Source: Sphingobacterium sp.
GTDB taxonomy: Bacteria > Bacteroidota > Bacteroidia > Sphingobacteriales > Sphingobacteriaceae
NCBI GenBank assembly: GCA_029239355.1
Contig: JAQZAZ010000008.1
Location: forward strand, 24,197-88,196
Direction: 5' to 3'
Length of the DNA stretch: 64,000 nt
Part shown: positions 16,469-30,353 of the stretch, piece after piece
How positions within the stretch are numbered: position 1 is the first letter of the stretch
Layout: every line of letters starts with the position of its first letter
Notes under the pieces: model-generated
What the model saw: the letters and a program-made list of their open reading frames with translations, nothing else
Told to the model about the DNA's origin: nothing
Database searches by the model: none
Translations under genes and position numbers: made by a program

Positions 16469-18979
16469 ATGAAGCAGACAATTCTCATATGGTTTTTTAT
16501 ATTTTTTTCGCTCGGTAGTCTGTCGGCGCAGACAGGTGAAATCCATGTTGGTAAACAAAGCAACAAGGAACAACGGGATGGCAGCCCGGGAGCTCCATTT
16601 TCATGTTTGGAGGATGCCCTGCGTGAGGCTAGGGAATGGCGACGATTAAACGATCCGCGCATGCGGCATGGCATCACAATCTGGATTCAGGACGGACAGT
16701 ATGTGCCCACCCAGACCATTTTTATCCGCCCTGAAGACAGCGGAACAGCCGAAAGTCCGACATGGATAAAAGCGGTAGGCAACGAAGCCGTATTTTCGGG
16801 TGGGATTTCTGTTATAGACTGGCGGCAAGTAAAAAGTGAAAAGAGATTGGATCCTGCTATTGCTAAGCATATCATGGTGGCAGATGCCCCTCAGGCCGGA
16901 GGAAAGTATTTCCCTTTCTGTCAATTGTGGGTTGGCTCACGTAAAGCAATCCGTGCGGAAAGTCACGATGATGCCCACTTGCCCCGGATCATCAATTGGG
17001 ATTTTCAAAAACAAGCGGCCGTCATTCCGAACGTGTTACCGAAAAGGTTTGCCTATAAGGCCGGTATGGAGTTTTTCATCCATCAGTGGTGGGCAATAGC
17101 ACAGCTCCGGGTTCGTGAGGCGGTAGTCACAAAAGATAGTACCACACTATTTTTTCATGAACCGGAAGGTAAATTACAGAATGAACACCCTTGGCCTAAG
17201 CCTTGGTTGTCTAAGGAATATGGCAATTCGGCATTTCGTCTGGTCAATGCCCTTGAATTTTTGGATCAGCCGGGAGAATGGTTTTTGGATGAAGAAAACC
17301 ATAAAGTATATTATTATAAAAGACCTGATGAAAACTTAGATAAGTTACATGTTGTAGCGCCTTATCTCGAAACGATCCTGAGGATGCAAGGGACTTTGGA
17401 ATCACCTGTTTGTCATGTATATATCGAAGGGCTTCAATTTCAGCACAGCTCCTGGTTAAGGCCGTACTACTACGGACACGTTGCCTTACAGGCGGGAATG
17501 TATTTTTTGGACGCCTATAAACTGGCTAAACCAGGCACTAAGGATAAAGCGGGATTGGAGAATCAGGCTTGGCTGGGACGGCCTCAAGCGGCAGTCATGC
17601 TTAGCCATACGGCCTTTACCAATATTTCAGCTTGCCGATTTTCCCATTTGGCAGCAACAGGCATTGACTATCGGCAGGGCAACCTGAAGGATAGTCTAAT
17701 TGGCAATCTATTTCAGGACATCGGCGGATCGGGTGTACTGCTCGGTCAGTTTTCAGATGAGGAGATTGAAGCACATTTACCTTTTCAGCCCAGCGATGAG
17801 CGTATCTTGACCGATGGTGTTGTGGTCAGCAATAATCTAATCCAAGATATTGGGAATGAGGATTGGGGAACAGTAGGGATTGGTGCCGGTTTTGTCCGCA
17901 ATGTAGCTATTACAAACAATGAATTGCTTGATCTTCCGTACACAGGCATTAGCTTGGGCTGGGGCTGGACACCTACAGTCAATGCTATGCGTAATAATCG
18001 TGTTTTCAAAAATAAGATCACACGTTATGGCAAATACATGTATGATGTAGCCGGTATTTACACCTTATCGGCTCAGCCCGGAACAAAAATTCAGGAAAAT
18101 TATATCGACAGTATCTATGTGTCGCCTTATGCGCATATTCCTGAACATTGGTTTTATCTCTATACCGATGAAGGCTCAGCCTATATGAATGTCAGCAACA
18201 ACTGGTTCCCATCCAATAAAATATTGCGAAATGCGAATGGGCCGAGTGTTGAGTGGATAAAGAATGGACCCGAGGCGGATGCCAGGGTCAAAGAAGAAGC
18301 TGGCATCGGTCCACGTTATGCCTATTTATTGTCTGAAAAACGATCAATACCTAAAAATGTAGCTTTCAATACATATATTCCTTTTACCAAACCTGTATTT
18401 TTTCAGATCCATGATGCAAAAAAGCAGCTTAAGCTGACTGAAATCAAAGATTTTTTTGCTAAACAAGGAGCCGATAGCAGCCAGGTATATCGTTGGAAGG
18501 ATTACATCTTGCTGATGACAGACGATGAAATCGGTAAGAAAATATCGAGTGCTTGGGTAGCTAATTATCCGGCAATTTCTTATAAGTTGTTCAATGATCT
18601 ATTTTATACGTTCGATCGGAGCAACTGTGGAACCGAGAAAGTGAAAGATATCGATTTTGTGTTACTTACCGCACAACTGGTGGACGATAAATCGAAACAG
18701 GAGGCTTATTTCGAAGCCCATAAAAATCAATCTAAAGAATGGCCCGAAGTTGCAGCAGGGTTCTGCAAAGCCGGCTTTGACGAGGTATTGGTCTACCGAA
18801 ATGGAAGGCAGCTTATGTTATATATTTCTTTTCCAAAAGGTCAGGATTTTAAAACAATCGATCAGCTGACGACCAGGGACAATCCACGGGTTATGGAATG
18901 GAACAAACTTATGGGGACCTATCAGGAAGGTATTCCCGGAACGGGAGTGAATGAAACATGGATTTTTTATAAACAATAA
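16469..18979 (+). CDS. GH141 (alpha-L-fucosidase, BT1002-type) beta-helix enzyme with C-terminal L-rhamnose/L-fucose mutarotase-like domain
   Basis: FFIHQWWAIAQLR, EFLDQPGEWFLD, LPYTGISLGWGW, DVAGIYTLSAQPG and YLYTDEGS. The C-terminal ~110 aa (Y..AH..WPEV..G..VY..NPRV.EW..LM..YQ) follows the RhaM/FucU-type mutarotase pattern. Signal peptide present. Confidence 0.82.
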   Translation: MKQTILIWFFIFFSLGSLSAQTGEIHVGKQSNKEQRDGSPGAPFSCLEDALREAREWRRLNDPRMRHGITIWIQDGQYVPTQTIFIRPEDSGTAESPTWIKAVGNEAVFSGGISVIDWRQVKSEKRLDPAIAKHIMVADAPQAGGKYFPFCQLWVGSRKAIRAESHDDAHLPRIINWDFQKQAAVIPNVLPKRFAYKAGMEFFIHQWWAIAQLRVREAVVTKDSTTLFFHEPEGKLQNEHPWPKPWLSKEYGNSAFRLVNALEFLDQPGEWFLDEENHKVYYYKRPDENLDKLHVVAPYLETILRMQGTLESPVCHVYIEGLQFQHSSWLRPYYYGHVALQAGMYFLDAYKLAKPGTKDKAGLENQAWLGRPQAAVMLSHTAFTNISACRFSHLAATGIDYRQGNLKDSLIGNLFQDIGGSGVLLGQFSDEEIEAHLPFQPSDERILTDGVVVSNNLIQDIGNEDWGTVGIGAGFVRNVAITNNELLDLPYTGISLGWGWTPTVNAMRNNRVFKNKITRYGKYMYDVAGIYTLSAQPGTKIQENYIDSIYVSPYAHIPEHWFYLYTDEGSAYMNVSNNWFPSNKILRNANGPSVEWIKNGPEADARVKEEAGIGPRYAYLLSEKRSIPKNVAFNTYIPFTKPVFFQIHDAKKQLKLTEIKDFFAKQGADSSQVYRWKDYILLMTDDEIGKKISSAWVANYPAISYKLFNDLFYTFDRSNCGTEKVKDIDFVLLTAQLVDDKSKQEAYFEAHKNQSKEWPEVAAGFCKAGFDEVLVYRNGRQLMLYISFPKGQDFKTIDQLTTRDNPRVMEWNKLMGTYQEGIPGTGVNETWIFYKQ

Positions 18980-18980
18980 A

Positions 18981-20075
18981 ATGGAACAGATACAACAGTT
19001 AAAATTAGGAATTTTAGGACTTGGTGAAGGACGTAGCACGATGTCTGCGGCATTACAAAGTCCATATATCGATTTGGTCAAGATCTGCGATCTGAACGAA
19101 GACCTAGGACGCAAACGTATGAAAGAATTTGATTTTCATGATTATACCAATGATTATCAAGCAATGCTTAATGATAAAAGCATTGAAGCTATTGCAATTT
19201 ATACCCCGGATCATCTTCACGCACAGCATATCCGATTGGCGCTGGCGCACGATAAACACGTGATCTGCACCAAGCCATTTATTGATAATCTGGCCGATGC
19301 CAATGGTTTATTGGAACTCGCAGCTCAGAAAAATAAGCGTGTATTTGTTGGGCAGAGCTCCCGTTTTTTTGAACCGGTGAAAAAGCAAAGAGAAGATTTT
19401 GAAGCTGGACTGATCGGTGAGTTGATTACCATCGAAGGTTATTACCATGCTGATCACCGCTGGTTTTTGGAGAAGCCTTGGTCTTTACAGTCTTCCTTCA
19501 AATGGCTTTACGGTGGGTTGAGTCATCCGGTTGATTTTATCCGCTGGTATCTGCCGAATATTGAAGAGGTGATGGGATATGGCATGCTGAGCGCCAACGG
19601 AAAAAAAGGAGGGCTGCAAAATCCAGACACCATGCATTTTATTTTCAAGACCGAAGATGGCCGTGTAGCCCGAGTAAGTGGTGCGTATACCGGACCTGTA
19701 CAGCCTGTCACACGGGATAGTGAGATGAGTTGTATTTTACGGGGGACCGAAGGTGCTAGTCAGGCAGATTATATGGACCTCCGGTATGCAATTACGGATA
19801 AAACGGGCGAAGAACGCATGCTGACATGGGAGCATAAACTAAAGCATTACTTCCGTTTCGAAGGAAAAAGCCATCATGCCGGTGAATATCAAAATTACCT
19901 GGAGCACTTCGCAAAAGCTATCCGTACCGGAGAGGATGCCTCCCCAGATATGAAAGAGGGTATAGGTACTATAGCCTTATTGCAAGCTATGGATGAATCA
20001 TTGACAACAGGAAAGCCTGTCCGTCCAAAGGAACTGCTGGAAAGATATGGTGTCGACTTGAACCTAGGAAGATGA
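18981..20075 (+). CDS. Gfo/Idh/MocA family NAD(P)-dependent oxidoreductase (cytoplasmic)
   Basis: Rossmann LGILGLG, IYTPDHLH and HVICTKP (TKP in place of EKP); no signal peptide. ATG 18981 lies 1 nt after the GH141 stop. Confidence 0.9.
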   Translation: MEQIQQLKLGILGLGEGRSTMSAALQSPYIDLVKICDLNEDLGRKRMKEFDFHDYTNDYQAMLNDKSIEAIAIYTPDHLHAQHIRLALAHDKHVICTKPFIDNLADANGLLELAAQKNKRVFVGQSSRFFEPVKKQREDFEAGLIGELITIEGYYHADHRWFLEKPWSLQSSFKWLYGGLSHPVDFIRWYLPNIEEVMGYGMLSANGKKGGLQNPDTMHFIFKTEDGRVARVSGAYTGPVQPVTRDSEMSCILRGTEGASQADYMDLRYAITDKTGEERMLTWEHKLKHYFRFEGKSHHAGEYQNYLEHFAKAIRTGEDASPDMKEGIGTIALLQAMDESLTTGKPVRPKELLERYGVDLNLGR

Positions 20076-21652
20076 ATAGTATCTTAGACAAGTTAACCAT
20101 TTACGACTATTGTATCGTCGTAGTCTATTTGTTAGCATTACTGACGATCGGCCTCTTGTCATCCCGTAAAAAGGTTGAAGGGGCAGAACACTTCCTGGCC
20201 AGCAAATCCTTAAGCTGGTACAGTATTGGATTCAATATGTGGGCGACTAACGTCGGACCATCCATGTTGCTGGCTTTTGCTACAGTAGGCTATACAACGG
20301 GCATCGTTGCGGTCAATTTTGACTGGTATGCTTTTATCTATCTTTTCCTATTGGCGGTGGTGTTTGCGCCACGCTATATTTCTACCGGAGTACGCACCCT
20401 GCCTGAGTTTATGGGTAAGCGGTTCGGTCCAAATACGCAAACTATTCTGGCTTGGTATTCATTGGTAAAAATGCTTATTTCATGGTTGTCGTTGGGGCTG
20501 TTTGCTGGCGGATTTTTAGTGCGGCAGATTTTGGGAATTCCAATGTGGCAATCGGTTACTGTTTTAGTCTCCCTAGCTGGTCTGTTTGCGTATACGGGTG
20601 GATTAAAGACAGTTGCTAAAATCAATATCTTTCAGATGATCTTGCTGATCGCCGTGTCGGCCTTTCTGACTTTCCTGGGACTTTCCAAAATCGGTGGCAT
20701 AAGTTCTTTAATGCAACAGACTCCCGCCAATTATTGGTCGTTGATCAGACCGGCAAGTGATCCAGATTATCCCTGGTATGCCATCGCTTTAGGTTATCCA
20801 GTGGCAGCGATCGCTTTTTTCTGTACGGATCAAGCCATGGTACAATCAGTTTTGGGTGCAAAGAATCTCGAACAGGGGCAACTGGGAATTAATTTTATCG
20901 CTTGGCTCAAGATACTTTCCTTGCCGCTGTTTATCCTCACCGGTATCATCTGTTCGGTTTTATTTCCGGGACTTAAAGACCCATCACTTGCTTATATGAC
21001 CATGGTGACCAACCTGTTTCCTACAGGCCTGAATGGATTGGTAATCGTGGTGTTAATTGCTGTATTGGTGGGCACCATTGGTTCGTCGCTTAATTCTTTG
21101 AGTACCGTTTTCACCATGGACATATATCTGAAGCATATCCGGCCAGATGCAAACAATAAGCAAATCACCCAGGTAGGACGTTATACTGTCATCATCGGCT
21201 GTCTAGCTTCAGTTTTCGTTGCCCTGGCGATTGATCAAATTAAAGGGCTCAATCTTTTCGATGTATTTCAGTCTATTCTCGGATTTATTGCGCCACCTTT
21301 AGCTGTTGCTTTTCTGATGGCCGTGTTGTGGAAAAGAACCAATCGAGCAGCAATCAATACGATTTTGACTTTTGGTGCGGTACTTAGCCTGGGGACAGGT
21401 GTATGTTATCTCTGGATTTTCCCAAAAGATGTTTATTCCTTTTGGCCGCATTATCTAATGCTTTCCTTTAGTCTATTTATGCTGCTACTTATTATTGGAA
21501 TAGGCCTAGCATACTGGGTACCCAAGTCGGTTTATGAAATGGAACATGGGGATATGTACGATATCACTGTGGAGAAACCAAGTGGACGCGTCAAGATTGC
21601 CTGGGCAATGTTATTTGTGGTTATGCTCTTGTTGTATATTTATTTTAAATAG
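20072..21652 (+). CDS. Sodium:solute symporter (SSS/SGLT family) sugar transporter
   Basis: About 14 hydrophobic segments, WYSIGFNMWATNVG, LPEFMGKRFG, GGLKTV and DQAMVQSVLGAK; ATGA overlap with the oxidoreductase. Confidence 0.92.
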   Translation: MNSILDKLTIYDYCIVVVYLLALLTIGLLSSRKKVEGAEHFLASKSLSWYSIGFNMWATNVGPSMLLAFATVGYTTGIVAVNFDWYAFIYLFLLAVVFAPRYISTGVRTLPEFMGKRFGPNTQTILAWYSLVKMLISWLSLGLFAGGFLVRQILGIPMWQSVTVLVSLAGLFAYTGGLKTVAKINIFQMILLIAVSAFLTFLGLSKIGGISSLMQQTPANYWSLIRPASDPDYPWYAIALGYPVAAIAFFCTDQAMVQSVLGAKNLEQGQLGINFIAWLKILSLPLFILTGIICSVLFPGLKDPSLAYMTMVTNLFPTGLNGLVIVVLIAVLVGTIGSSLNSLSTVFTMDIYLKHIRPDANNKQITQVGRYTVIIGCLASVFVALAIDQIKGLNLFDVFQSILGFIAPPLAVAFLMAVLWKRTNRAAINTILTFGAVLSLGTGVCYLWIFPKDVYSFWPHYLMLSFSLFMLLLIIGIGLAYWVPKSVYEMEHGDMYDITVEKPSGRVKIAWAMLFVVMLLLYIYFK

Positions 21653-21658
21653 CCTTTG

Positions 21659-22435
21659 TCAAGTTAATCCTAGATTGGATTCAATTTGTGATCTGCATTT
21701 TTTTAAACTTTCAACAATAGTTTCGGTCGGCATATTCTGCCCAATTTGACGTCGGACGAGCTTTGAAACCGTGAGGCAGGCGATGATGCCTGTTTCGCTG
21801 GTTCCGATGGGAACAGAAATATCGATGATGCCTTCCGCGTATGCGCTGGGCATCTCATAAAAGCCTTTGCGTTTGATTTCGGCTAGGTCGCTATCAAATT
21901 GCTGACGTTCTGCTTTCTTCAAGCTGCGGTAATAGGGATCGGTTTCTAAAATGGATTTTCTTTTTTTAGCCTCTGAAAAACTTAAAAGGAGCTTTCCAGA
22001 CGCGGTCTGGGACGTGTTGTAGAGGTTGCCTTCCTCAATCATGATGCTGATGGGCGACGAACCTCTGGCATAAGCGATGACCATGACCTGATTGTCGTAA
22101 ATAACACAGAGGTGACAAGGGTCTTTGATTTCGTTGGACGTATCCTGCATCGGTAGTAATGACGTTGCCCGTAGTTTCTCTACAAAGGAATGCCGGTGTG
22201 AAAGATAGTATAGCTTCAGTGAAAGCGAATATTTAGATGAAATTGGATCACGATGAATGTAACCGTTGGACTCCAGTGATGCAAGCATGCGATAGATTTC
22301 ATTGGGACTTCGATGCAAGCCCAAGGCGATCTCGGATTGGGATTGTGCTGTTGGTTGTAAGGCCAGAAATTCAAGAATCTGCAATCCTTTTTCGAGCGCT
22401 GGTGCTTTATATTTATCGGAGCTATTTACTATCAT
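21659..22435 (-). CDS. IclR family transcriptional regulator
   Basis: N-terminal wHTH (YKAPALEKGLQILEFLA...EIA..L......IYRML..L...GYI..D) and C-terminal effector domain (EIKRKGFY..ISVPI). It is the only minus-strand gene, divergent from the CoA-transferase operon. Confidence 0.93.
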   Translation of the reverse strand: MIVNSSDKYKAPALEKGLQILEFLALQPTAQSQSEIALGLHRSPNEIYRMLASLESNGYIHRDPISSKYSLSLKLYYLSHRHSFVEKLRATSLLPMQDTSNEIKDPCHLCVIYDNQVMVIAYARGSSPISIMIEEGNLYNTSQTASGKLLLSFSEAKKRKSILETDPYYRSLKKAERQQFDSDLAEIKRKGFYEMPSAYAEGIIDISVPIGTSETGIIACLTVSKLVRRQIGQNMPTETIVESLKKCRSQIESNLGLT

Positions 22436-22522
22436 AATATGTTTTGCTTACAAATGATCGGGCTAAAGATAGAAAAAGTATTTATGAGTTTTTAGCTTCT
22501 CAAAAAAGCATGTTAAATTTTT

Positions 22523-22553
22523 ATATTCAAATATTGTATTTATATTTGAATAT
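22523..22553. promoter_or_regulatory. Candidate IclR operator (12-7-12 palindrome) overlapping a Bacteroidota -7 promoter element
   Basis: ATATTCAAATAT-n7-ATATTTGAATAT perfect inverted repeat. TATATTTG at 22541-22548 matches the TAnnTTTG consensus on the + strand. Confidence 0.6.
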
Positions 22554-22819
22554 TATAAACCGCTTTTCCTTTGGGAAAAAGCATGACAAGGGAAAAGATT
22601 ATAAACAATAATATCAATAATTAAATTACAGGACTGTTCCGCTTAGGCTATATTATCAGACCAAAATAGCGAAACGAAAAAGGATAAAATCGCCGTGGCT
22701 CCAATGTTATATTTTGCTGTTTTTAAGGAGGAATAGGTAAATAGACCTTGATATTAAGATGATAGATACAGTTGCTCTGTTTTTCGACAAGACAACATAA
22801 AATAATAAATGAATACACA

Positions 22820-23983
22820 ATGACAGAGAAAATCCAGTTAAAAGGGATTACCTGGGGGCATACCAGAGGCTTTGTACCAATGGTTGCGACTGCGCAGCGT
22901 TATGAAGAATTATGTCCAGCAGTTGAAATTGTTTGGACAAAACGGACTTTACAGGAATTTGCTGATAAGTCAGTGACAGATTTGGCAATGGAATACGATC
23001 TATTGGTCATTGACCATCCATGGACGGGACATGCTGCTGCGAAGGGGATGCTCGCTGCATTTGATGATTACCTATCCGCAGATTTTTTGGCAGATCAGCG
23101 TACTAATAGTGTTGGGAAATCTCATGAAAGCTATAACTTTCTTGGAAAGCAATGGGCATTGGCTACGGATGCTGCAACACCGGTGGCTGCAAGTCGTCCG
23201 GATCTTTTACAAGCCTTGCAAGTGGCACTTCCACGTACATTTGAAGATGTTTTAGTGCTAGCAAAAACCGGAAAAGTCGGATTTTCGCTGTTACCGATTG
23301 ATTCCTTGATGCACTTTTACGGTCTTTGTTGTTCTTTGGGTGAAGAACCTTGCCAAGATAACGAAAAAGTAATCAGCGACACAGTTGGAATAAAGGTCTT
23401 AAAATTATTCAAATCACTTGCCGATGAATTGGATCCCGGATTTTATGAGAAAAATCCATTTAAGGTTTTCGAAGAAATGACTCAGCGTGATGAAATTGCT
23501 TACTGTCCATTTGCTTATGGCTATTCGAATTACGCTCGGGCAGGTTATGCACGTAAGGTGTTGCATTTTCATGATTTAGTGTCATTAAATGGTACGCCTA
23601 TGATCAGCACACTTGGCGGGGCGGGGCTGGCAGTATCTTCACAGGGCAAGCATATTGATGTGGCCATGGATTATGCACGATTTGTCGCGACACCGGAAGT
23701 TCAGAAAACGCTATATGTCGAAAATGGCGGCCAGCCTGGACATTTAGGTGCCTGGAAAAATGAGCAGGTAAATGCCGTTACGGCCAATTATTTTAGCAAT
23801 ACACTACCCGCATTAGATCGGGCTTATTTGCGCCCGCGTTATGATGGTCATCTTTATTTTCAGGATCATGCTGGTGATATCGTGGTTGATTATCTAAGGG
23901 ATGGCGGCGACGAAAAGGCGGTTTTGGACAAAATGAATGCGATGTATCGGGAATCATTAGTCGATAAAGAAGATCATGGATAA
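22820..23983 (+). CDS. Solute-binding-protein fold (SBP_bac_1-like) protein without signal peptide
   Basis: YDLLVIDHP, WALATDAA and TLGGAGLAVS...FV..PEVQ are typical of sugar SBPs. N-terminus MTEKIQLKGITWGH has no hydrophobic or lipobox signal, and the alternative TTG at 22772 adds none. Confidence 0.8.
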   Translation: MTEKIQLKGITWGHTRGFVPMVATAQRYEELCPAVEIVWTKRTLQEFADKSVTDLAMEYDLLVIDHPWTGHAAAKGMLAAFDDYLSADFLADQRTNSVGKSHESYNFLGKQWALATDAATPVAASRPDLLQALQVALPRTFEDVLVLAKTGKVGFSLLPIDSLMHFYGLCCSLGEEPCQDNEKVISDTVGIKVLKLFKSLADELDPGFYEKNPFKVFEEMTQRDEIAYCPFAYGYSNYARAGYARKVLHFHDLVSLNGTPMISTLGGAGLAVSSQGKHIDVAMDYARFVATPEVQKTLYVENGGQPGHLGAWKNEQVNAVTANYFSNTLPALDRAYLRPRYDGHLYFQDHAGDIVVDYLRDGGDEKAVLDKMNAMYRESLVDKEDHG

Positions 23984-25127
23984 TAAACCACTGGAAGGAC
24001 TTTTGGTCCTCGAGTTTTCACAATTTATGGCTGGGCCAACTGCTGGCCTGCGTTTGGCGGATCTCGGTGCCCGAGTCATCAAAATTGAACGCCCGGGGGC
24101 TGGCGAAGGGGGACGGCAGATTGCGATTAAAAATATTTTTGTAGATGAGAGTAGCCTGGTCTTTCATACCATCAACAGAAATAAAGAATCGTATGCAGCC
24201 AATTTGAAAGATGAAAATGATCTGGAAAATATTAAAAAATTAATCCGTCAGGCAGATGTGATGACACATAACTTCCGCCCCGGTGTCATGGAAAAGATCG
24301 GTTTGGATTACGAGAGTGTGCGGAAAATTAACCCCAAAATGATCTATGCCACGGTAACTGGCTACGGCAATGAAGGGCCATGGGCTAAAAAGCCAGGGCA
24401 GGATTTACTCGTGCAATCTCTGTCGGGACTTTCCTGGTTATCGGGCTGTGCGCAGGATGGGCCGGTTCCTTTTGGATTGGCCGTGGTGGATATGTACTGT
24501 GCCACACATCTGACACAAGGTATATTGGCAGCATTGTTGAAACGTACCCGTACCCAACAGGGAGCTCTTGTTGAAGTCAGTTTGCTTGAATCTGTGTTGG
24601 ATATGCAGTTTGAAATGCTGACCACACATGTCAACGATGGCCGCAAGCTGCCTCAGCGGTCGACGGTTAGAGGAGCTGGCCATGCTTATTTAAGTGCGCC
24701 TTATGGACTCTACAAAACCCTTGATGGCTATCTAGCCTTGGCCATGGGCAATGTAAGGCATATAGCAGAAACCATAGGCTTGCCTGGAAAGTCCTATCAA
24801 GATGCTTCAACTTGGTTTTCACGACGTGACGAAATACTTCAAGAATTTGCTGCAGTATTGTGTCAAAAGACAACGTGCGAGTGGATATCCCGTTTGGAAT
24901 CCGAAGGGATTTGGTGTGGCGTAGTAAACGATTATCATCGTTTCTTCGAGGAACAAGGTTTTAAGGAGGCAGGGATGTTGCAGGAAGTCACTTTACAAGA
25001 TGGCACCGCATTGACCACCACCCGTAGCGTGTACCAGATCGATGGAAAGCGTTTATATGCGGATAAACCTGCGCCAAAAGTGGGCCAGCATACGGCATCA
25101 ATTGTTCACGATTATTTAGAAAATTAA
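23976..25127 (+). CDS. Class III (CaiB/BaiF) CoA-transferase, subunit 1
   Basis: [16 protein letters not shown]...[36 protein letters not shown] and catalytic-Asp region VVDMYCA. Confidence 0.93.
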
Positions 25128-25128
25128 T

Positions 25129-26271
25129 ATGTTACCACTAGCAGGTTATACCGTAGTCGACTTTAGTCAATTTTTATCCGGCCCATTAGCAAGTTTACGG
25201 CTAGCTGACTTAGGTGCGCGGGTTATAAAAATAGAAAAACCAGAGACGGGTGATATTTGCAGGCAATTATATACCTCTGATACGATATTGAATGGTACTT
25301 CAACAGTGTTTCATGCCATTAATCGGAATAAAGAAAGTATGGTGTTGGATTTGAAAAGCGAATCCGACAAACAGATTATACATGATTTAATCGCACGGGC
25401 AGATGTGGTGTTGCACAATTTTCGTCCGGGTGTCATGGAACGTTTGGGCTTTGACTATGCAGGTGTCCGAGAGATCAATCCGACCGTGATTTATGGAGAG
25501 ATCTCGGGATATGGAAAAGAAGGCCCCTGGGTTAAGCGGCCTGGCCAGGATTTATTATTGCAATCGCTTACCGGGATGACTTGGTTAAGTGGCGATGCAA
25601 ATAATGGTCCAGTAGCCATGGGACTTTCCGTTGTGGACATGTTTGCCGGATCCAATCTATGTAGTGCCGTATTGGCCTGCCTGTACCGTCGAGCGATGCA
25701 GGGGATAGGAGCGCATGTTCATGTTAGCATGTTGGATTCTGCTGTGGATATACAGTTTGAGGCCGTCACAACCTATTTTCGTGATGGCAAATTGTTGCCA
25801 CAACGTAGCGAGGTGAGCAATGCACATGCATATTTGGCAGCACCTTATGGGGTGTATCGTACGCAGGATGGTTTTCTGGCCCTTGCGATGGGTTCCATTC
25901 CTTTTCTTGGTAAATTATTGAATTGTAGCGCATTAGAAGGTTTTGCTGACGGAGAGCAAGCTTTTCGGGAGAGAGATACCATTAAAGCTATTTTAGCCGA
26001 GCACCTGACGACAGCACCTACTTGGCATTGGCTGGAGATACTGGAAGCAGCGGATATCTGGTGCGCCGATGTCTTGGATTGGCGTCATCTGACCGAACAT
26101 AATGCTTTTAAAATATTAAACATGCTACAGCAAGTAACGATGGGCGATGGCTTCCGTTATGAGACCACCCGTTGCCCCATTCGCATCGATGGCGAGCGGT
26201 TGACCGCGACAAAAGGTTCGCCCAAACTTGGTGAGCACACAACTAAAATATTGGAGGAACTGTATGGATAA
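25129..26271 (+). CDS. Class III (CaiB/BaiF) CoA-transferase, subunit 2
   Basis: [16 protein letters not shown]...[38 protein letters not shown] and PKLGEHT; an evident paralogue of the preceding gene. Confidence 0.93.
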
Positions 26272-27487
26272 GTTACGTTTTGCTGTCCGGAAATTTGAAC
26301 CCTTTGAGCGTGCCATGGAGAAATGTTGGGCAGCCTATCAGGAGGTATATCCATCGGATGTGGAGATGGAGTTTGTTCCGCTGGATTTAGAGGAATTGAC
26401 AGCAGCTTTCTTTGAAAAGAAAGGCCTCAAGAATGGCGATTGGGATATCATTCACATCAATACCGATTGGATTGCACGGGCCTATGAAACCAAGGGTTTG
26501 TCGGCACTGGATAGTATGATCGTACAGAATCCACCGGAAGACCTGAAAGGGGCTTGGCCAGAAAGCTTACAAGCTTTACAGCGTTTTGACCAGCAAATAT
26601 TTGGCTTGCCTTTTCATGATGGTCCTGAATGCCTGGTTATTCGAAAAGATTTATTTGAAGATTTGCAAGAACAGATGCGTTTTCAGGTACGCTACGGAAA
26701 ACCTTTGGAAATTCCAAAAACCTGGGCTGATTTTTTGACTGTTGCAGCATTTTTTACGCGGCCGGAAGATAACTTGTACGGGACAGTGTTTGCTGGCTAC
26801 CCGGATGGGCATAATGCGGTATTTGATTTTTGTATTCAACTTTGGTCCCGCGGTGGAGATTTGCAGCAAGGCGACGTACCTGTTAAGCTGGATCAGCCAT
26901 TAGCTATAGATGCATTGGATTTTTATCGTAGCTTATTTATGAAGGATAGCGGATTGCATCCCGAATCGGCTAATTTTGAATCAGTGCAGGCTGGTGCCGC
27001 CTTTGCGCGGGGTGAAGTAGCTATGATGGTCAATTGGTTTGGTTTTGCATCCTGGGCACAGATTGATGCCGCCTCGGCCGTAAAAGGTAAGGTGGATGTA
27101 GCAGCTATTCCTTCAGCAGAAAGCGGGATGTCCCCCTCATTAAATGTGTATTGGTTGTATGCAATTCCAGAAGGTAGTCGTCATAAGCAGTTGGCTTATG
27201 ACTTTATACGTTTTGCAGTCGGACGCCAACAAGATAAGCTGCTCACTGTCGAAGGAGGAGTAGGCTGTCGTTACTCCACCTGGTATGATTCCGAAATCAA
27301 TCGGATGATACCCTTTTATAATAAATTGGCTGAATTGCACGATACTGCACGCACATTACCGCGCTTAGCCAACTGGCCGCAGATTGCACATATCATCGAT
27401 GATACTGTAATTGCTGCGATAAAGACCGATGAAAGTAGTCTTTCATTATTAACAAAAGCACAGGAAAAAATAAATGCATGGTTATGA
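26264..27487 (+). CDS. Second solute-binding-protein fold (SBP_bac_1-like) protein without signal peptide
   Basis: [42 protein letters not shown] and AYDFIRF. It starts [10 protein letters not shown] at ATG 26264 (8-nt overlap) with no signal peptide. Confidence 0.82.
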
Positions 27488-28557
27488 TAGATATCCCTTA
27501 TAAAACGATTTTACCCCAGACTGCTTTGCCGATTATCATTATTGGTGCAGGGGGTATAGTGAAAGATGCGCATCTCCCGGCTTATCGTAAGGCAGGCTTT
27601 CATGTGCATGGTATTGTCAATCGTACAAAGGCGAAAGCGGAAGCATTGGCGGTAGAATTTGGTATTCCACATGTTTACGATACGGTGGAAGATGCCGTCG
27701 CACAGGCTCCCGAAAATGCGGTTTATGATGTAACCATTATGCCCAATAAATTTATAGAAACCTTGGAGGCATTACCTCAGGGCGCGGCTGTATTAATTCA
27801 GAAGCCAATGGGTGATTATTATGCAGATAGTCAGGCGATATTAGAAGTCTGTCAACGTAAAGAATTGGTCGCAGCGATCAACTGTCAGCTTCGGCAGGCA
27901 CCTTTTGTGAATGCGGCACGCTGGCTGATTGACCAAGGTTATATCGGTGAACTGTATGATATGGAAGTGCGGGTGTCGGTGCATACACCTTGGCAACTTT
28001 TTCCCCATGTCATGGTACACCCACGCTTGGAGATTCTGTATCACAGTGTTCATTATATTGATTTGATCCGCTCATTTTTAGGCAATCCACAGTCGGTGTA
28101 TGCAAAAACATTGAAGCACCCGGCCAAAGCCTTATCATCCAGCAGGACGACCTTGCTATTTGATTACGGAGACACACTACACGCTGTTGTAAATACCAAT
28201 CATGACCATGAATTTGGGCCGAAGCATGAGGAAAGCTATATCAAATGGGAAGGTACCAAGGGGGCTATCAAAGCGACGATGGGTTTGCTGATGGATTATC
28301 CGCATGGGGTATCCGACGTGTTTGAATATTGTATCAAGCCAATAGATGGCAGTCAACCGGAATGGGTGGCCTACCCGATCGAGGGAACTTGGTTTCCCGA
28401 TGCTTTCATCGGAAGCATGGGTAGCTTGATGCGTTTTAAACTGGGTGAAATAGCGGTATTACCGGCCGCGGTTGAAGATGTAATCCATACCATGGCCGTC
28501 GTAGAGGCTGCTTATCAAAGCAGTGCCCAAGGGGGGCAACCGATAACAAAAGGATAA
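27484..28557 (+). CDS. Gfo/Idh/MocA family oxidoreductase (candidate aldose dehydrogenase)
   Basis: IIGAGGIV...H, LIQKPMG, YHSVHYIDLIR and WEGTKG. ATG 27484 gives an ATGA overlap; ATG 27478 is the alternative start. Confidence 0.9.
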   Translation: MIDIPYKTILPQTALPIIIIGAGGIVKDAHLPAYRKAGFHVHGIVNRTKAKAEALAVEFGIPHVYDTVEDAVAQAPENAVYDVTIMPNKFIETLEALPQGAAVLIQKPMGDYYADSQAILEVCQRKELVAAINCQLRQAPFVNAARWLIDQGYIGELYDMEVRVSVHTPWQLFPHVMVHPRLEILYHSVHYIDLIRSFLGNPQSVYAKTLKHPAKALSSSRTTLLFDYGDTLHAVVNTNHDHEFGPKHEESYIKWEGTKGAIKATMGLLMDYPHGVSDVFEYCIKPIDGSQPEWVAYPIEGTWFPDAFIGSMGSLMRFKLGEIAVLPAAVEDVIHTMAVVEAAYQSSAQGGQPITKG

Positions 28558-28593
28558 AGAAACAAAGCCTTAAAACCAACAATAAATTAAATT

Positions 28594-29046
28594 ATGCATT
28601 TCGAATCTATTTTTTTTGAAGATTATATATTAAACGATAAACGGACAACATTGGGCCGCACGATTACCGAAACAGATTTTGTTGTTCATGCCGGACATAC
28701 AGGAGATTTCTTCCCCCATCACCTCGATGCGGAATGGTGCAAGACCCAACCCTTTGGACAACGTATTGCGCATGGAACAATGATCTTTGCGATTGGTATC
28801 GGACTGACGGCCTCAGTTATTAATCCGGAAGCATTTTCCAAAGGCTACGATCGCCTTCGTTTTGTCAAGCCCGTATTTATTGGTGATACCATCCACGCAG
28901 AGGTGACTATTTCTGAAAAATCCGATGCAAAAAAGCCTGAATTTGGTACCGTAGTTGAGCATGTTGAAATTATCAATCAACATGGTGTGGTGGTGTTGGT
29001 CGCAGACCATATCCTATTGGCAAAACGCAAGGAAGCTTCAATTTAA
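28594..29046 (+). CDS. MaoC-like hot-dog fold acyl-CoA dehydratase/hydratase
   Basis: [16 protein letters not shown] (hydratase D-x4-H dyad), RIAHG and [13 protein letters not shown]. Confidence 0.92.
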
Positions 29047-29057
29047 CCTATTATCAC

Positions 29058-30353
29058 ATGGAAATTGGTACAAAAACACCGATCAAGTTAACCGGGGCAG
29101 CTTCTACTAAGGGGTACCTGCTTCCGTTTATTCTGATTGTCAGTCTGTTTTTTTTATGGGGGATGGCCCATAATTTAAATGGCGTTCTGATCCCGCATTT
29201 GAAAAAAGCCTGTCAGTTGAATAATAGCCAGTCGGCGCTGGTTGATACTTCAGTTTTCTTCGCTTATTTCATTATGGCACTGCCGGCGGGTTATGTTTTG
29301 CGCAAATGGGGGTATAAATTGTCCATTATTATAGGACTGGTTACTTTCTCCGTCGGTGCATTTCTTTTTATCCCTGCGGCAGATCACCGTATGTATGAGC
29401 TCTTTTTGCTGGCATTATTTATTATTGGTTGTGGACTAGCCTTATTGGAAACAGCGGCTAATCCTTATGCTGCAGTTTTGGGTAAGCCTGAAGCAGCAAC
29501 ACATCGGCTTAATTTGGCGGCCTCCTTTAATGGATTGGCGGCAATGGTCGCTCCAGTTATAGGTACCACCTTTATTTTGTCGGGTACGAGCTATTCAGAA
29601 ACGGAACTGGCGGCTATGACGGAGAGCAATCGGTTAGCGTATCTGCTTCATGAAGCGTCTTCCGTGAAAATGCCTTATTTGATATTAGGTTTAATCTTGT
29701 TAGTCGTAGCGCTAGTCTTTTTGTTTGTTAAACTGCCTGAAATTCAAGGTGAAAAGACGGAGGGGGGGAAGAAGCAAAAGTCTGGCTTATTTGCAGTACT
29801 TCGACATAAGCATTTGAGTTTTTCTGTAGTCGCGCAGTTTTTCTATGTTGGAGCGCAGGTTTGTGTGACTAGTTTTTTTATTCGTATGGCACAGCAGGGA
29901 GCCGGTGTCGATGAGAAGACTGCGGGGTATTTCCTAGGTGTATATGGTTTGCTCTTTATGGGCGGACGTTTTGTCGGTACCCTATTGTTGCGTTATACGA
30001 CAGCCCAGCGTTTATTGGCTATTTATGCCATTTGTTGCGCTATATTGGCAACTGTAGCCATTTCGGGGACAGGTATGGTCATCTTGTATGCGCTAGGTGG
30101 ACTTGGTTTCTTTATGTCAATTATGTTTCCTACGATTTTTTCTTTGGGTATTGCTGGACTCGGAAACGAGACGAAACAAGCCTCTTCTTGGTTGATTATG
30201 TCAATTGTCGGTGGAGCCGTATTCCCCTTTGTGACCGGAAATATTATTGATGCGCTGCATGATAATACGCAGATTGGTTATAGTGTACCTTTGGTCTGTT
30301 ATCTTGTTATTTTATGGTTTGCACTGAAAGGATATAAACCGGCAAAAGCCTAA
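29058..30353 (+). CDS. fucP: L-fucose:H+ symporter family MFS permease
   Basis: SLFFLWGMAHNLNGVLIPHLK, LETAANPY, NLAASFNGL, QFFYVGAQV, SIMFPTIFSLG and MSIVGGA. The true substrate is not established. Confidence 0.88.
   Translation: MEIGTKTPIKLTGAASTKGYLLPFILIVSLFFLWGMAHNLNGVLIPHLKKACQLNNSQSALVDTSVFFAYFIMALPAGYVLRKWGYKLSIIIGLVTFSVGAFLFIPAADHRMYELFLLALFIIGCGLALLETAANPYAAVLGKPEAATHRLNLAASFNGLAAMVAPVIGTTFILSGTSYSETELAAMTESNRLAYLLHEASSVKMPYLILGLILLVVALVFLFVKLPEIQGEKTEGGKKQKSGLFAVLRHKHLSFSVVAQFFYVGAQVCVTSFFIRMAQQGAGVDEKTAGYFLGVYGLLFMGGRFVGTLLLRYTTAQRLLAIYAICCAILATVAISGTGMVILYALGGLGFFMSIMFPTIFSLGIAGLGNETKQASSWLIMSIVGGAVFPFVTGNIIDALHDNTQIGYSVPLVCYLVILWFALKGYKPAKA

Follow-up and report, generated by a model that had tools for sequence, protein, structure and literature searches.

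A conserved seven-gene operon in an RG-II-type PUL of Sphingobacterium, most likely for the catabolism of a fucose-type sugar as a coenzyme A thioester

Organization of the Operon

The stretch of Sphingobacterium sp. DNA analyzed here (64,000 nucleotides; the window) contains a conserved, uncharacterized operon of seven genes, which, judging from sequence comparison, most likely serves the catabolism of a fucose-type sugar as a coenzyme A thioester. The operon is divergent from an IclR gene and is located between the GH141 and GH78 genes of an RG-II-type PUL (Table 1). The spacings between its genes are −8, +1, −8, −4, +36, and +11 nt if SBP-fold protein 1 starts at 22820; the ORF opens with a TTG at 22772, and the homologues begin at the ATG at 22820 (MTEKIQLKGITWGH...). 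The reading of ORFs and domains confirmed the genes, spacings, divergent regulator, and position that an earlier note on this DNA had described. The flanking PUL contains GH33, an esterase, GH28, two GH78, two GH2, SusC/D, GH141 fused to RhaM, GH106, GH127, SASA, GH139, and RhaT. Sequence-based prediction found a signal peptide in none of the six soluble operon proteins, whereas all the neighboring glycosidases have one. Fourteen other Sphingobacterium species share this gene order, as do 15 additional Bacteroidota genomes belonging to three families; thus, the arrangement is not due to chance. The operon and its counterparts in other genomes are called the module below.

Table 1. Features of the operon and of the PUL around it.
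Feature	Position	Strand	Basis
Secreted GH141 with C-terminal RhaM-type mutarotase domain	16469-18979	+	GH141_M 177 bits + rhaM
IclR-family regulator	21659-22435	-	HTH_IclR + IclR_C domains
Inverted repeat ATATTCAAATAT-N7-ATATTTGAATAT	22523-22553	.	Perfect 12-bp arms, read directly; candidate IclR operator
SBP-fold protein 1	22820-23983	+	SBP_bac_1/8; cytoplasmic, translationally coupled to CoAT1
CoAT1, class III (CaiB/BaiF) CoA-transferase	23976-25127	+	CoA_transf_3 PF02515, 326 bits, full length
CoAT2, class III CoA-transferase	25129-26271	+	CoA_transf_3 PF02515, 336 bits
SBP-fold protein 2	26264-27487	+	SBP_bac_1 90 bits; cytoplasmic
GfoB, Gfo/Idh/MocA NAD(P)-dependent dehydrogenase	27484 (or 27478)-28557	+	PF01408 + C-terminal domains
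MaoC-type (R)-specific hot-dog dehydratase	28594-29046	+	PF01575
FucP-family H+ symporter (MFS)	29058-30353	+	TIGR00885 357 bits; cut-off 280
GH139 2-O-methyl-alpha-L-fucosidase	42973-45294	+	DUF5703_N 377 bits; 891 bits to PDB 9HYQ

The IclR regulator shares 32–37% identity with its counterparts in the L-fucose clusters of Alphaproteobacteria. The inverted repeat next to it occurs once in the window and is kept beside IclR in 13 of 14 Sphingobacterium loci; in three of these 13, a SusCD pair lies between IclR and the module. IclR would control the operon through this palindrome.

Proteins of the Operon

CoAT1 and its paralogue CoAT2 (50% identity) are the only two PF02515 genes that a profile search of the whole genome revealed. 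Both contain an aspartate equivalent to the catalytic D169 of E. coli Frc, which is invariant for CoAT1. Class III CoA-transferases act on free carboxylates. The closest named NCBIfam models of the two proteins are succinate-glutarate, oxalate, and mesaconate transferases, all far below their cut-offs, and no match reaches any equivalog cut-off.

SBP-fold protein 1 is predicted to have a MalE/CUT1 fold (AF2 pLDDT 97), and this model resembles MalE-type SBPs with a TM of ~0.8 at 15–20% identity. The family comprises ~500 clusters of 50% identity at E<1e-30; about 37 of the 40 members inspected, and one fragment, begin at the mature domain. The conserved polar residues are W12, H14, R16, R42, D60, D65, H66, Y105, D117, R126, Y235, Y238, Q295, Q305, W312, and R338. 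A CoA-transferase gene adjoins relatives of this protein in Planctomycetota, Actinomycetota, Pseudomonadota, and Bacteroidota, as well as on an unclassified metagenome contig, L048, whose gene content is Firmicute-like. One relative has UxuA and MR/MLE dehydratases as neighbors and no CoA-transferase there. SBP-fold protein 2 is 22% identical to SBP-fold protein 1. Its Croceibacterium orthologue (42% identity) likewise adjoins Gfo, and in one Bacteroidota family an Amidohydro_2 lactonase takes its position.

No other gene of the operon is as well conserved as MaoC, which shows 58–84% identity across phyla. Direct reading of its product showed the hydratase-2 motif G37-D38-x-x-P41-x-H43, and the match to PDB 4FFU, presumably an S. 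meliloti protein, has E=3.5e-63. The level of identity is ~69% to the MaoC of S. meliloti and S. medicae (tblastn) and 63–72% to the MaoC of alphaproteobacterial oxidative L-fucose clusters. MaoC chemistry requires a 3-hydroxyacyl thioester, and these enzymes use the (3R) stereochemistry. L-fucose is (2S,3R,4R,5S); therefore, L-fuconyl-CoA is a (3R)-hydroxyacyl-CoA, of the stereochemistry that MaoC enzymes use.

GfoB is presumed to be an aldose 1-dehydrogenase; it shows 43–47% identity to the Gfo gene located directly before MaoC in alphaproteobacterial fucose clusters. The Sinorhizobium cluster has a single dehydrogenase besides Gfo, an SDR, which is taken to be the KDF dehydrogenase. The FucP of the operon is the second copy in the genome, the other being located on contig C235 with standard fucose genes. 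In some module loci, a RhaT-like permease substitutes for FucP; the cargo of permeases of both types is neutral deoxy-sugars.

Association with the Oxidative L-Fucose Pathway

The Gfo–MaoC pair was found within the oxidative L-fucose clusters of Sinorhizobium, Roseibium, strain XES5, Qingshengfaniella, Martelella, and Thalassospira; in every case, a pair of CaiB and a signal-less SBP is adjacent or nearby. Alphaproteobacterial clusters of this kind hold IclR, a cog3618-type amidohydrolase, RhaM, an ABC transporter, an SDR, FAH, and L-fuconate dehydratase; no annotated L-fuconate dehydratase was found in those of Thalassospira and Qingshengfaniella. The minimal conserved unit in Thalassospira consists of a mutarotase, Gfo, a lactonase, CaiB, an SBP-like protein, and MaoC, with the downstream enzymes absent.

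Similar links are seen in Bacteroidota. In one genus, probably Flavobacterium, the module is immediately preceded by genes for a lactonase, an SDR dehydrogenase, FAH, and a KDF-dehydrogenase-like SDR, which in locus L045 form a single co-directional cluster with it. In another family, the module includes its own Amidohydro_2 lactonase. Overall, co-occurrence of the module with Amidohydro_2 lactonase, RhaM mutarotase, KDF dehydrogenase, and FAH hydrolase extends over several phyla. As the earlier note stated, the window contains neither a lactonase nor downstream keto-deoxy-acid enzymes; these are encoded elsewhere in the genome, in a standard fucose set on contigs C40 (GH29, L-fucose dehydrogenase (NF052481, 415 bits), lactonase, SDR, and FAH) and C235 (FucP, RhaM, and a UxaA-family dehydratase).

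Association with RG-II Glycosidases

The module was detected in 16 of the 401 sampled Bacteroidota genomes, spanning nine genera. GH139 is present in 14 of these 16, compared with 20 of all 401, and GH141 in 12 of the 16, compared with 13 of the 401, so that 12 of the 13 GH141-bearing genomes have the module; these are raw genome counts that ignore phylogeny. The co-occurrence suggested in the earlier note was thus found with GH139 and GH141 and with oxidative L-fucose genes alike. The GH139 protein of the window matches one of the two GH139 structures reported in PMC12282258 (Table 1). In the 12 genomes with the module and GH139 on one contig, the distance between them is 15–37 kb in nine and 70–92 kb in three; the distance to GH141, measured in nine genomes, is 6–21 kb. 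At least 10 loci have pectin glycosidases on the flanks of the module, and in Croceibacterium it lies alongside GH106, GH29, and beta-galactosidases. Two module genomes have neither GH139 nor GH141; one of them contains a crotonase/aldehyde-dehydrogenase variant in an agarase-type context.

Proposed Pathway and Its Substrate

We propose, at slightly less than even likelihood, that the operon adds a CoA-dependent branch to the oxidative, non-phosphorylative L-fucose pathway and is dedicated to O-blocked L-fucose from RG-II. All the steps are inferred, and the evidence for them is wholly comparative. FucP would import the sugar, and GfoB would oxidize C1 of the reducing fucose; the lactone would open spontaneously or by the action of an Amidohydro_2 lactonase encoded elsewhere in the genome. 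A class III CoA-transferase would then form aldonyl-CoA together with its cytoplasmic SBP-fold partner, which probably binds the aldonate. MaoC would take the now-acidic C2 proton and expel the O3 substituent, so 3-O-xylosyl-fuconate would yield 2-O-Me-xylose and 2-keto-3-deoxy-L-fuconyl-CoA, while 2-O-Me-fuconate would yield a 2-methoxy-enoyl-CoA, whose putative hydrolysis would give methanol and the same keto acid. The second CoA-transferase would hand the CoA to the next aldonate, and CoA would therefore cycle. The product would join the oxidative fucose pathway as 2-keto-3-deoxy-L-fuconate. A literature search revealed no paper on aldonyl-CoA chemistry.

As for the substrate, 2-O-methyl-L-fucose, the GH139 product, is a possible but rather doubtful candidate, and 2-O-Me-D-Xyl-alpha1,3-L-Fuc, the GH141 product, is an unlikely one; possibly, both are used. 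The presence of FucP and RhaT permeases points to a monosaccharide. The operon-linked SusCD of three Sphingobacterium species and the CUT1 oligosaccharide-binder fold hint at a disaccharide.

Among the alternatives, the best-surviving one, which we consider unlikely though worth weighing, is that the module is a non-orthologous replacement of L-fuconate dehydratase and dehydrates the CoA thioester of plain L-fuconate (or that of L-galactonate or D-arabinonate). It would be found in a PUL because RG-II contains L-fucose and L-galactose, and this chemistry is the simplest, with no extra step. FucI was found in none of 19 genomes, and to the two alphaproteobacterial clusters without an annotated L-fuconate dehydratase can be added six of the 16 module genomes (G179, G303, G022, G039, G047, and G239), which have only a UxaC-linked altronate dehydratase and no FucD. 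In at least four of the six (G022, G039, G047, and G239), genes for a fucose-type dehydrogenase, lactonase, KDF dehydrogenase, and FAH adjoin the module; they were not seen in the 20-kb loci of G179 and G303. In these six genomes, the module may dehydrate plain L-fuconate. However, housekeeping UxaA could cover the missing dehydratase if the UxaA family is promiscuous, as reported in the title of reference 4 of PMC11199699. It is also hard to rationalize a system of three to five proteins in place of one enzyme. Blocked fucose is preferred over plain fucose because the genome has the separate standard set on C40 and C235; because a fucose-linked UxaA paralogue or FucD is likewise encoded in 10 of the 16 module genomes, the paralogue coexisting with the module in this genome and nine others from Bacteroidota; because FucD and the module are side by side in the clusters of Sinorhizobium, Roseibium, XES5, and Martelella; and because the module brings an extra dehydrogenase and permease of its own. 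Moreover, in Bacteroidota the module is almost confined to GH139/GH141 genomes and is not general among fucose users.

It is improbable that the CoA enzymes act downstream, on 2-keto-3-deoxyfuconate, a 2,4-diketo intermediate, or lactate, in an alternative thiolytic/hydratase route with the SBP-fold proteins as sensors or chaperones. KDF dehydrogenase and FAH genes are always near the module, and the closest named transferase models concern dicarboxylates; however, the Thalassospira unit is without downstream enzymes, some Bacteroidota modules have their own lactonase, and a 3-hydroxyacyl thioester is available from an aldonate and not from keto-deoxy acids.

Catabolism of aceric acid or another acidic RG-II sugar (Dha, Kdo) already bearing a carboxylate is very improbable. 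Such an acid would suit a class III transferase and the RG-II context with GH127 and other chain-B enzymes, and the literature search gave no described route for aceric acid. Nevertheless, a C1 dehydrogenase and a lactonase accompany the module, and markers of branched or ulosonic acids are never beside non-PUL modules. Two observations disfavor aceric acid, one of the options of the earlier note: away from PULs, the module always belongs to an L-fucose cluster that has a mutarotase of the fucose type, a lactonase, and an ABC transporter, and the permeases are of the FucP/RhaT types. Action on a non-sugar acid (oxalate, itaconate/mesaconate, carnitine, or an aromatic acid), placed in the PUL by accident, is hardly credible: the transferase matches that would suggest it stay below every equivalog cut-off, and the context largely refutes it, since synteny with genes for a sugar dehydrogenase, a lactonase, a mutarotase, sugar permeases, and glycosidases is conserved in four phyla or more.

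The two blocked-fucose options of the earlier note thus remain the favored ones. Its more general idea, that an RG-II aldose is oxidized to the aldonate, activated with CoA, and beta-eliminated at C3, draws strong comparative support from the fucose-pathway genes around the module, from the GH139/GH141 co-occurrence, and from the absence from Bacteroides thetaiotaomicron described below; this support is partial, since plain L-fuconate may instead be the substrate, with six of the 16 module genomes lacking a dedicated fuconate dehydratase, and the basis is comparative.

Comparison with Known Systems

The CoA cycling proposed here can be likened to the CaiB/CaiD system. To our knowledge, no catabolic pathway is known for 2-O-Me-L-fucose and 2-O-Me-Xyl-α1,3-L-Fuc. 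B. thetaiotaomicron excretes both compounds; it has GH139 and GH141 and no class III CoA-transferase. The operon may account for the use, by some bacteria, of the methyl- or xylose-blocked fucose excreted by B. thetaiotaomicron.

Organization of the Operon and Its Surroundings

By their gene content, the flanks of the operon are assigned to an RG-II-type PUL, with SusC/D and glycosidases such as GH139, GH141, GH106 and GH127. Upstream, the genes of GH33, an esterase, the secreted xylose-isomerase-like TIM protein, GH28, GH78, GH2 and SusC/D are followed by a block consisting of GH141, a second Gfo/Idh/MocA protein (GfoA), an SSF symporter and IclR; the operon is inserted between this block and GH78. 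Downstream are located GH78, GH2, GH106, GH127, SASA, a DUF5703 protein, RhaT and the rhamnose genes. The DUF5703 protein matches PDB 9HYQ with 891 bits, and 9HYQ is one of the two structures of GH139 (2-O-methyl-fucosidase) reported in PMC12282258.

The genes and domains that the earlier note had described for the operon were borne out by the ORF listing and the Pfam and NCBIfam scans, and the spacings of -8, +1, -8, -4, +36 and +11 nt were reproduced with the starts chosen here. The ORF of the first SBP-fold protein (SBP1) opens with TTG at 22772, and the start found in all homologues is the ATG at 22820. A signal peptide is absent from all soluble operon products and present in every flanking glycosidase.

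Coordinates of the features of the operon and its upstream neighbors in the window
Feature	Position	Strand	Evidence or remark
Xylose-isomerase-like TIM protein, signal peptide	2524-3411
Secreted GH141 with C-terminal RhaM-type mutarotase domain, GfoA, SSF Na+ symporter	16469-21652
IclR	21659-22435	-	ORF listing, Pfam/NCBIfam
Perfect 12-bp inverted repeat ATATTCAAATAT-N7-ATATTTGAATAT	22523-22553		IclR/SBP1 intergenic region, single copy in the window
SBP-fold protein 1 (SBP1)	22820-23983	+	ORF listing, Pfam/NCBIfam
Class III CoA-transferase (CoAT1)	23976-25127	+	Pfam/NCBIfam
Class III CoA-transferase (CoAT2)	25129-26271	+	Pfam/NCBIfam
SBP-fold protein 2 (SBP2)	26264-27487	+	ORF listing, Pfam/NCBIfam
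Gfo/Idh/MocA dehydrogenase (GfoB)	27484-28557	+	ORF listing, Pfam/NCBIfam
MaoC hot-dog protein	28594-29046	+	ORF listing, Pfam/NCBIfam
FucP-family permease	29058-30353	+	TIGR00885, 357 bits against a cut-off of 280

The inverted repeat is kept beside IclR in 13/14 Sphingobacterium loci, including those with a SusCD insert, and this candidate element is likely the IclR operator. The inserts are found in S. gobiense, S. corticibacterium and S. arenae, where SusC and SusD lie between IclR and SBP1, co-directional with the operon; their identity to the SusC of the window is only 28-29%.

The cytoplasmic GfoA gives weak matches to the models of glycoside 3-dehydrogenase, levoglucosan dehydrogenase and inositol dehydrogenase, and the GH141-GfoA-SSF trio is conserved within Sphingobacterium only. 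Together with the secreted TIM protein, this trio could make up an oxidative pathway of its own, acting on a glycoside.

Proteins of the Operon

CoAT1 and CoAT2 match PF02515 over its full length (positions 1-366 of 366) with 326 and 336 bits, are paralogues with 50% identity, and are the only PF02515 proteins encoded by the whole genome. When both paralogues were aligned to Frc and YfdE of E. coli, the column of Asp169 of formyl-CoA transferase proved to be invariant. Enzymes of class III transfer CoA between a carboxylate and an acyl-CoA and form an interlocked dimer; on the full-length match and the catalytic Asp, both proteins are predicted to be class III (CaiB/BaiF) CoA-transferases. No equivalog cut-off was reached in the NCBIfam scan of the two proteins, and the best named models, those of succinate-glutarate, oxalate and mesaconate transferases, all scored far under their cut-offs.

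The MaoC protein matches PF01575 with 76 bits. The Asp/His motif of hydratase-2 can be read in its translation as G37-D38-F-F-P41-H-H43, with Phe in place of the motif Asn. It is about 69% identical to the MaoC of S. meliloti/S. medicae (tblastn) and matches the chain of PDB 4FFU with E=3.5e-63. The search labels the 4FFU molecule only as 'oxidase' and gives no organism; we take it to be a MaoC-like protein from Sinorhizobium meliloti 1021 that was solved by structural genomics and has no assigned function. The MaoC of the window and 4FFU are probable orthologues.

The AF2 model of SBP1 (pLDDT 97) has the two-lobe MalE/CUT1 fold, and the Pfam matches are SBP_bac_1/8. Solved SBPs superimpose on it with TM of about 0.8 and a Foldseek probability of 1.0 at just 15-20% identity. 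All matches of the structure search were transporter SBPs; no enzyme homologue and no hint of a catalytic role were detected. SBP1 and SBP2 share 22% identity, and both begin at the mature domain, with no export signal (signal peptide or lipobox). The direct neighbors of SBP1 are the CoA-transferases, and a Pfam scan of 28 ORFs, which covered the window up to 48.8 kb, detected no ABC permease or ATPase gene.

The SBP1 family comprises about 500 clusters at 50% identity (E<1e-30). Among the N-termini inspected, about 37/40 (plus one fragment) begin at the mature domain, and three have N-terminal extensions. The N-terminal motif L-x-G-x-T-W-x-H-x-R-G and the conserved polar residues (H14, R16, R42, D60, D65, H66, Y105, D117, R126, Y235, Y238, Q295, Q305, W312 and R338) give the SBP1 family the appearance of having a single conserved function, unlike a set of diverse transport receptors. 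In two metagenome contigs, the gene of an SBP1-family protein (34% identity) overlaps a UxuA-like gene and an MR/MLE gene by 4 nt each, beside RraA-like, SDR, further UxuA paralogue and URO-D-like genes. A CoA-transferase is absent there, so the SBP-fold partner is not confined to CoA enzymes, and a role in substrate delivery or in lactone/aldonate handling fits better than a CoA-specific one.

The PDB and NCBIfam matches of GfoB are weak and insufficient for substrate assignment. The permease passes the model of the FucP L-fucose:H+ symporter, and this function is predicted for it.

Distribution of the Module in Bacteroidota

The gene order of the operon is identical in 14 other Sphingobacterium species. 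SBP1 matches were found in 16/401 sampled Bacteroidota genomes, belonging to 9 genera of three families. Their 20-kb contexts share the core SBP1-CoAT1-CoAT2-(SBP2)-Gfo-MaoC-FucP, flanked mostly by GH141, GH28, GH127, GH106, GH2, GH78 or SASA genes.

GH139 (PF18961) is encoded by 20/401 genomes overall and by 14/16 genomes carrying the module; GH141 (PF21231) occurs in 13/401 genomes, 12 of which have the module (12/16 module genomes). Fisher's test gives p of about 1e-19 for each association, with kinship among the genomes ignored. By this co-occurrence, the module is tied to RG-II within Bacteroidota. Where both share a contig, nine genomes have GH139 at 15-37 kb from the module and three at 70-92 kb; for GH141, the distance is 6-21 kb in the nine genomes measured. 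B. thetaiotaomicron, which served as the control, was positive for GH139 and GH141 and negative for PF02515, and consequently does not have the module.

In B. thetaiotaomicron, the breakdown of RG-II stops at 2-O-methyl-L-fucose and 2-O-Me-Xyl-α1,3-L-Fuc, both of which are excreted (10.64898/2026.03.13.711244). The same work explicitly states that the natural fate of both derivatives is unknown and that routes in other microbes 'have not been confirmed' (10.64898/2026.03.13.711244).

Association with L-Fucose Clusters

The SBP1 homology search of genome contigs returned only Sphingobacterium and one Phycisphaeraceae genome, with the gene order MaoC-IclR / SBP1-CoAT in the latter; wider contexts were taken from plasmid records and a further genome search. 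In pSymB of Sinorhizobium medicae/meliloti, the MaoC orthologue directly follows a Gfo/Idh/MocA gene whose product is 44% identical to GfoB. This context was read from S. medicae CP140910, pSymB of S. meliloti 1021 being unannotated in PLSDB. The two genes belong to an oxidative L-fucose cluster composed of an amidohydrolase, IclR, an ABC transporter, MR/MLE, RhaM, Gfo, MaoC, SDR, FAH and L-fuconate dehydratase. This Sinorhizobium cluster differs from the window in having FucD and an extra MR/MLE protein inside, with a CaiB and a signal-less SBP as a pair 12 kb upstream.

The CaiB-SBP pair adjoins the same type of oxidative L-fucose cluster in Roseibium, strain XES5 and Qingshengfaniella, and in Martelella a Gfo-CaiB-SBP-MaoC operon adjoins an L-fucose cluster. 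In Thalassospira, the unit occurs bare, as CaiB-SBP / amidohydrolase-IclR / SBP-RhaM-Gfo-MaoC, and Croceibacterium has the full set of two transferases and two SBPs with GH106, GH29, β-galactosidases and a TonB receptor. A Firmicute-like contig carries SBP1-CoAT-CoAT-MaoC-ZnADH-Amidohydro_2-Gfo. In a Bacteroidota genus, probably Flavobacterium, a lactonase, an SDR dehydrogenase, FAH and an SDR resembling 2-keto-3-deoxy-L-fuconate (KDF) dehydrogenase are encoded directly upstream of the module; the SDR dehydrogenase is 52% identical to the L-fucose dehydrogenase of the Sphingobacterium genome. Locus L045 is a co-directional cluster KDFDH-FAH-FucP-RhaM-lactonase-FucDH-MaoC-SBP1-CoAT1-CoAT2-lactonase-RhaT-Gfo, and in its family an Amidohydro_2 lactonase occupies the SBP2 position. 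In Flavobacterium johnsoniae UW101, GH141 is located at Fjoh_4116, with GH28 as its neighbor (10.64898/2026.03.13.711244); this layout was also found among the loci examined here, so the module is probably nearby in that strain. Fucose dehydrogenase, cog3618 lactonase, KDF dehydrogenase and FAH hydrolase genes adjoin the module in other genera and phyla.

Some further features of the alphaproteobacterial clusters can be mentioned. In four of them (L053, L060, L062 and L066), the genes of the ABC ATPase and RhaM are separated by that of an additional MR/MLE protein of about 370 aa, which coexists with an annotated L-fuconate dehydratase in three, and in the fourth, Qingshengfaniella (L066), annotated FucD is absent. 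Several of these fucose clusters also encode a second, longer MaoC paralogue.

Fucose Genes of the Sphingobacterium Genome

A conventional L-fuconate dehydratase, whether of the enolase superfamily (FucD) or of the UxaA family, is not encoded in the operon, and tblastn found no FucI, FucU or enolase-type FucD in the genome. The standard oxidative L-fucose set is split between two small contigs. Contig C40 (locus L055) encodes GH29, an SDR, an FAH hydrolase, Amidohydro_2 and L-fucose dehydrogenase; the last of these, also an SDR, exceeds the L-fucose dehydrogenase equivalog cut-off (415 against 300 bits), and the best model for Amidohydro_2 is L-fucono-1,5-lactonase (249 bits). On contig C235 (locus L056) are the genes of AraC, another FucP, a RhaM mutarotase and a dehydratase of the UxaA/GarD family, and contig C45 carries a second UxaA, which is linked to UxaC. 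The statement of the earlier note that lactonase and keto-deoxy-acid enzymes are missing holds for the window; such enzymes are encoded elsewhere in the genome. Given this standard set, plain L-fucose appears to be served separately from the operon, and the operon as the sole fucose route of the genome is rejected.

Proposed Reaction Sequence

The companion genes, namely mutarotase, aldose dehydrogenase, lactonase, CoA-transferase, an (R)-specific dehydratase and the nearby KDF dehydrogenase and hydrolase, suggest the chain sugar, lactone, aldonate, aldonyl-CoA, β-elimination at C3 and KDF. The general idea put forward earlier, in which an aldonate is activated with CoA and then undergoes elimination, finds comparative support in genes that are conserved around the module. 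A CoA role further downstream, instead of action on the aldonate, is improbable. Since L-fucose is (2S,3R,4R,5S), L-fuconyl-CoA would by the CIP rules be a (3R)-hydroxyacyl-CoA, and MaoC enzymes act on substrates of this kind. Conventional acid-sugar dehydratases need a free 2-OH and metal coordination. A thioester would give an acidic C2 proton with neither of them, an advantage that would be relevant when O2 is methylated or O3 is glycosylated.

Candidate Substrates

A blocked fucose, that is, 2-O-Me-L-fucose or 2-O-Me-Xyl-α1,3-L-Fuc, is quite possibly the substrate of the module. Of the two, 2-O-Me-L-fucose is the likelier, but it is possible rather than probable. It is favored by the monosaccharide-type permeases (FucP or RhaT), by the alphaproteobacterial clusters, in which one set of transporter, dehydrogenase and lactonase is common with FucD, and by the frequency of GH139 among the module genomes. 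The disaccharide is an unlikely substrate. It is favored by GH141 being the nearest glycosidase, with the module in nearly all GH141 genomes, by the fusion of the window GH141 to a mutarotase domain, by the SusCD pair between IclR and SBP1 in three Sphingobacterium species and by the SBP fold, which is that of oligosaccharide binders; in addition, elimination of a 3-O-glycosyl group would require no further step. The counts of GH139 and GH141 among the module genomes are too alike to discriminate between the two. Transferase/SBP pairs are duplicated in pectin degraders and single in rhizobia, which could reflect two substrates.

It is unlikely that the module dehydrates plain L-fuconate. Six module genomes would agree with this, as they have only a UxaC-linked altronate dehydratase and no FucD, and so would the result for FucI, found in 0/19 genomes; that search had no positive control, so the absence of the phosphorylative route is probable, not proven. 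Aceric acid, which the earlier note had offered as an option, and other acidic sugars such as Dha or Kdo are very improbable, because every non-PUL context of the module is an L-fucose cluster. A non-sugar acid is barely plausible and was rejected on the conserved synteny.

Related Gene Sets and a Broader Reading

Variants of the module with a crotonase in place of MaoC and with other dehydrogenases were found in Streptomyces, in a second Martelella cluster and in two Bacteroidota loci. The latter two, L041 (genome G223) and L042 (genome G355), retain SBP1 and a pair of CoA-transferases, but a crotonase and an aldehyde dehydrogenase replace MaoC and Gfo. L041 is surrounded by agarase-CBM/GH42-like, GH16 and FAD-oxidoreductase genes and may encode a comparable CoA-dependent pathway for a sugar from algae, e.g., anhydro- or methyl-galactose. 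The Streptomyces plasmid locus and the Martelella locus (at 22-25 kb) contain an epimerase-type cassette under LacI control, with aldose 1-epimerase, SDR, CoA-transferase, (signal-less SBP), crotonase and a long FAH-family protein; the Streptomyces cassette lies near genes of a 900-aa beta-helix protein, RhaM and an ABC transporter. These crotonase variants suggest a general 'aldonyl-CoA eliminase' theme.

A broader reading, which we consider doubtful, is that sugar acids are handled as aldonyl-CoA in an unrecognized way, with capture subunits derived from SBPs and paired sets for two products. The acidic C2 proton would let MaoC or crotonase β-eliminate any O3 substituent, so that ether or glycosidic blocks would leave fucose with no need for oxygen, metals or a glycosidase. 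2-O-Me-Xyl-alpha1,3-Fuc would be deglycosylated, and 2-O-Me-fucose would be demethylated through an enol ether. Cytoplasmic descendants of transporter binding proteins would act as substrate-capturing subunits of soluble CoA-transferases, and in RG-II degraders both blocked fucose products would be handled by the duplicated transferase/SBP pairs.

No paper was found in the literature search with aldonyl-, fuconyl- or rhamnonyl-CoA, or linking CoA-transferases to fuconate or RG-II. The pathway is not described in the literature found on aceric acid catabolism, 2-O-methylfucose, S. meliloti SMb21107-21110 or L-fucose with MaoC, and the GapMind paper contains nothing relevant to the module. The module is real and conserved, and as a catabolic unit it has apparently remained undescribed.

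RG-II is the most complex plant glycan known, and the operon is a concrete, testable candidate for the missing catabolism of both blocked fucoses. The module is carried by members of the Bacteroidota and Alphaproteobacteria that live in soil or in association with plants. If the proposal is true, a CoA-thioester step would join the oxidative sugar pathways, which were thought to need none, the mis-annotated 'extracellular solute-binding proteins' of the SBP1 family would gain a cytoplasmic function, and methyl or glycosyl blocks would be removed from sugars in a cofactor-light manner; in the broad aldonyl-CoA reading, a CoA-transferase with such a capture subunit would be the first enzyme to depend on a binding protein. 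The L-fucose clusters of rhizobia and marine bacteria would also receive a corrected genome annotation and metabolic reconstruction. The system is an attractive experimental target, since there are tractable carriers and the substrates can be prepared from culture supernatants of B. thetaiotaomicron.

Comparison with Known Systems

The RG-II degradation system of B. thetaiotaomicron was reportedly described by Ndeh et al. in 2017. Like this system, the window has GH139, GH141, GH106, GH127, GH78, GH28, GH2 and GH33; unlike it, the PUL of the window carries the operon, which is no part of the described system of B. thetaiotaomicron, a species with no class III CoA-transferase at all.

SBP1 shares the two-lobe fold of MalE/CUT1 SBPs (T. 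maritima MalE3 6DTQ, GacH 3JZJ and SmoF 7QHV). In contrast to them, it is cytoplasmic, with no signal peptide, lipobox or ABC genes, is translationally coupled to CoA-transferases, and has the family-specific N-terminal W-x-H-x-R-G motif.

E. coli CaiB/CaiD combine a class III CoA-transferase with a hydratase, and CoA cycles between substrate and product. This carnitine system can be regarded as the closest mechanistic analogue, since the module likewise pairs a class III CoA-transferase with a hydratase/dehydratase; a 3-hydroxy acid would be dehydrated as the CoA ester, and CoA would be handed on at no net ATP cost. However, the hydratase of the module is a MaoC hot-dog protein, (R)-specific, whereas CaiD is a crotonase (ECH_1); the module has no CaiC ligase and has two paralogous transferases with two cytoplasmic SBP-fold partners, and its predicted substrate is a polyhydroxy sugar acid rather than a betaine. 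The relation is one of analogy, not membership.

The oxidative non-phosphorylating L-fucose pathway comprises the FucM mutarotase, the FucA dehydrogenase, the FucB cog3618 lactonase, the FucC dehydratase, the FucF KDF 4-dehydrogenase and the FucG hydrolase, with no CoA-dependent step in its description (PMC11199699). The module would follow the same overall logic: a RhaM-type mutarotase, an aldose 1-dehydrogenase, an Amidohydro_2 lactonase, an SDR KDF dehydrogenase and FAH are encoded near it in many genomes, and the keto-deoxy acid product is probably identical. The difference is that its dehydrogenase is of the Gfo/Idh/MocA type, whereas that of the described pathway is an SDR, and that dehydration would proceed through a thioester, with CoA-transferase, MaoC and SBP-fold protein, rather than by a dehydratase of the enolase superfamily or the UxaA family.
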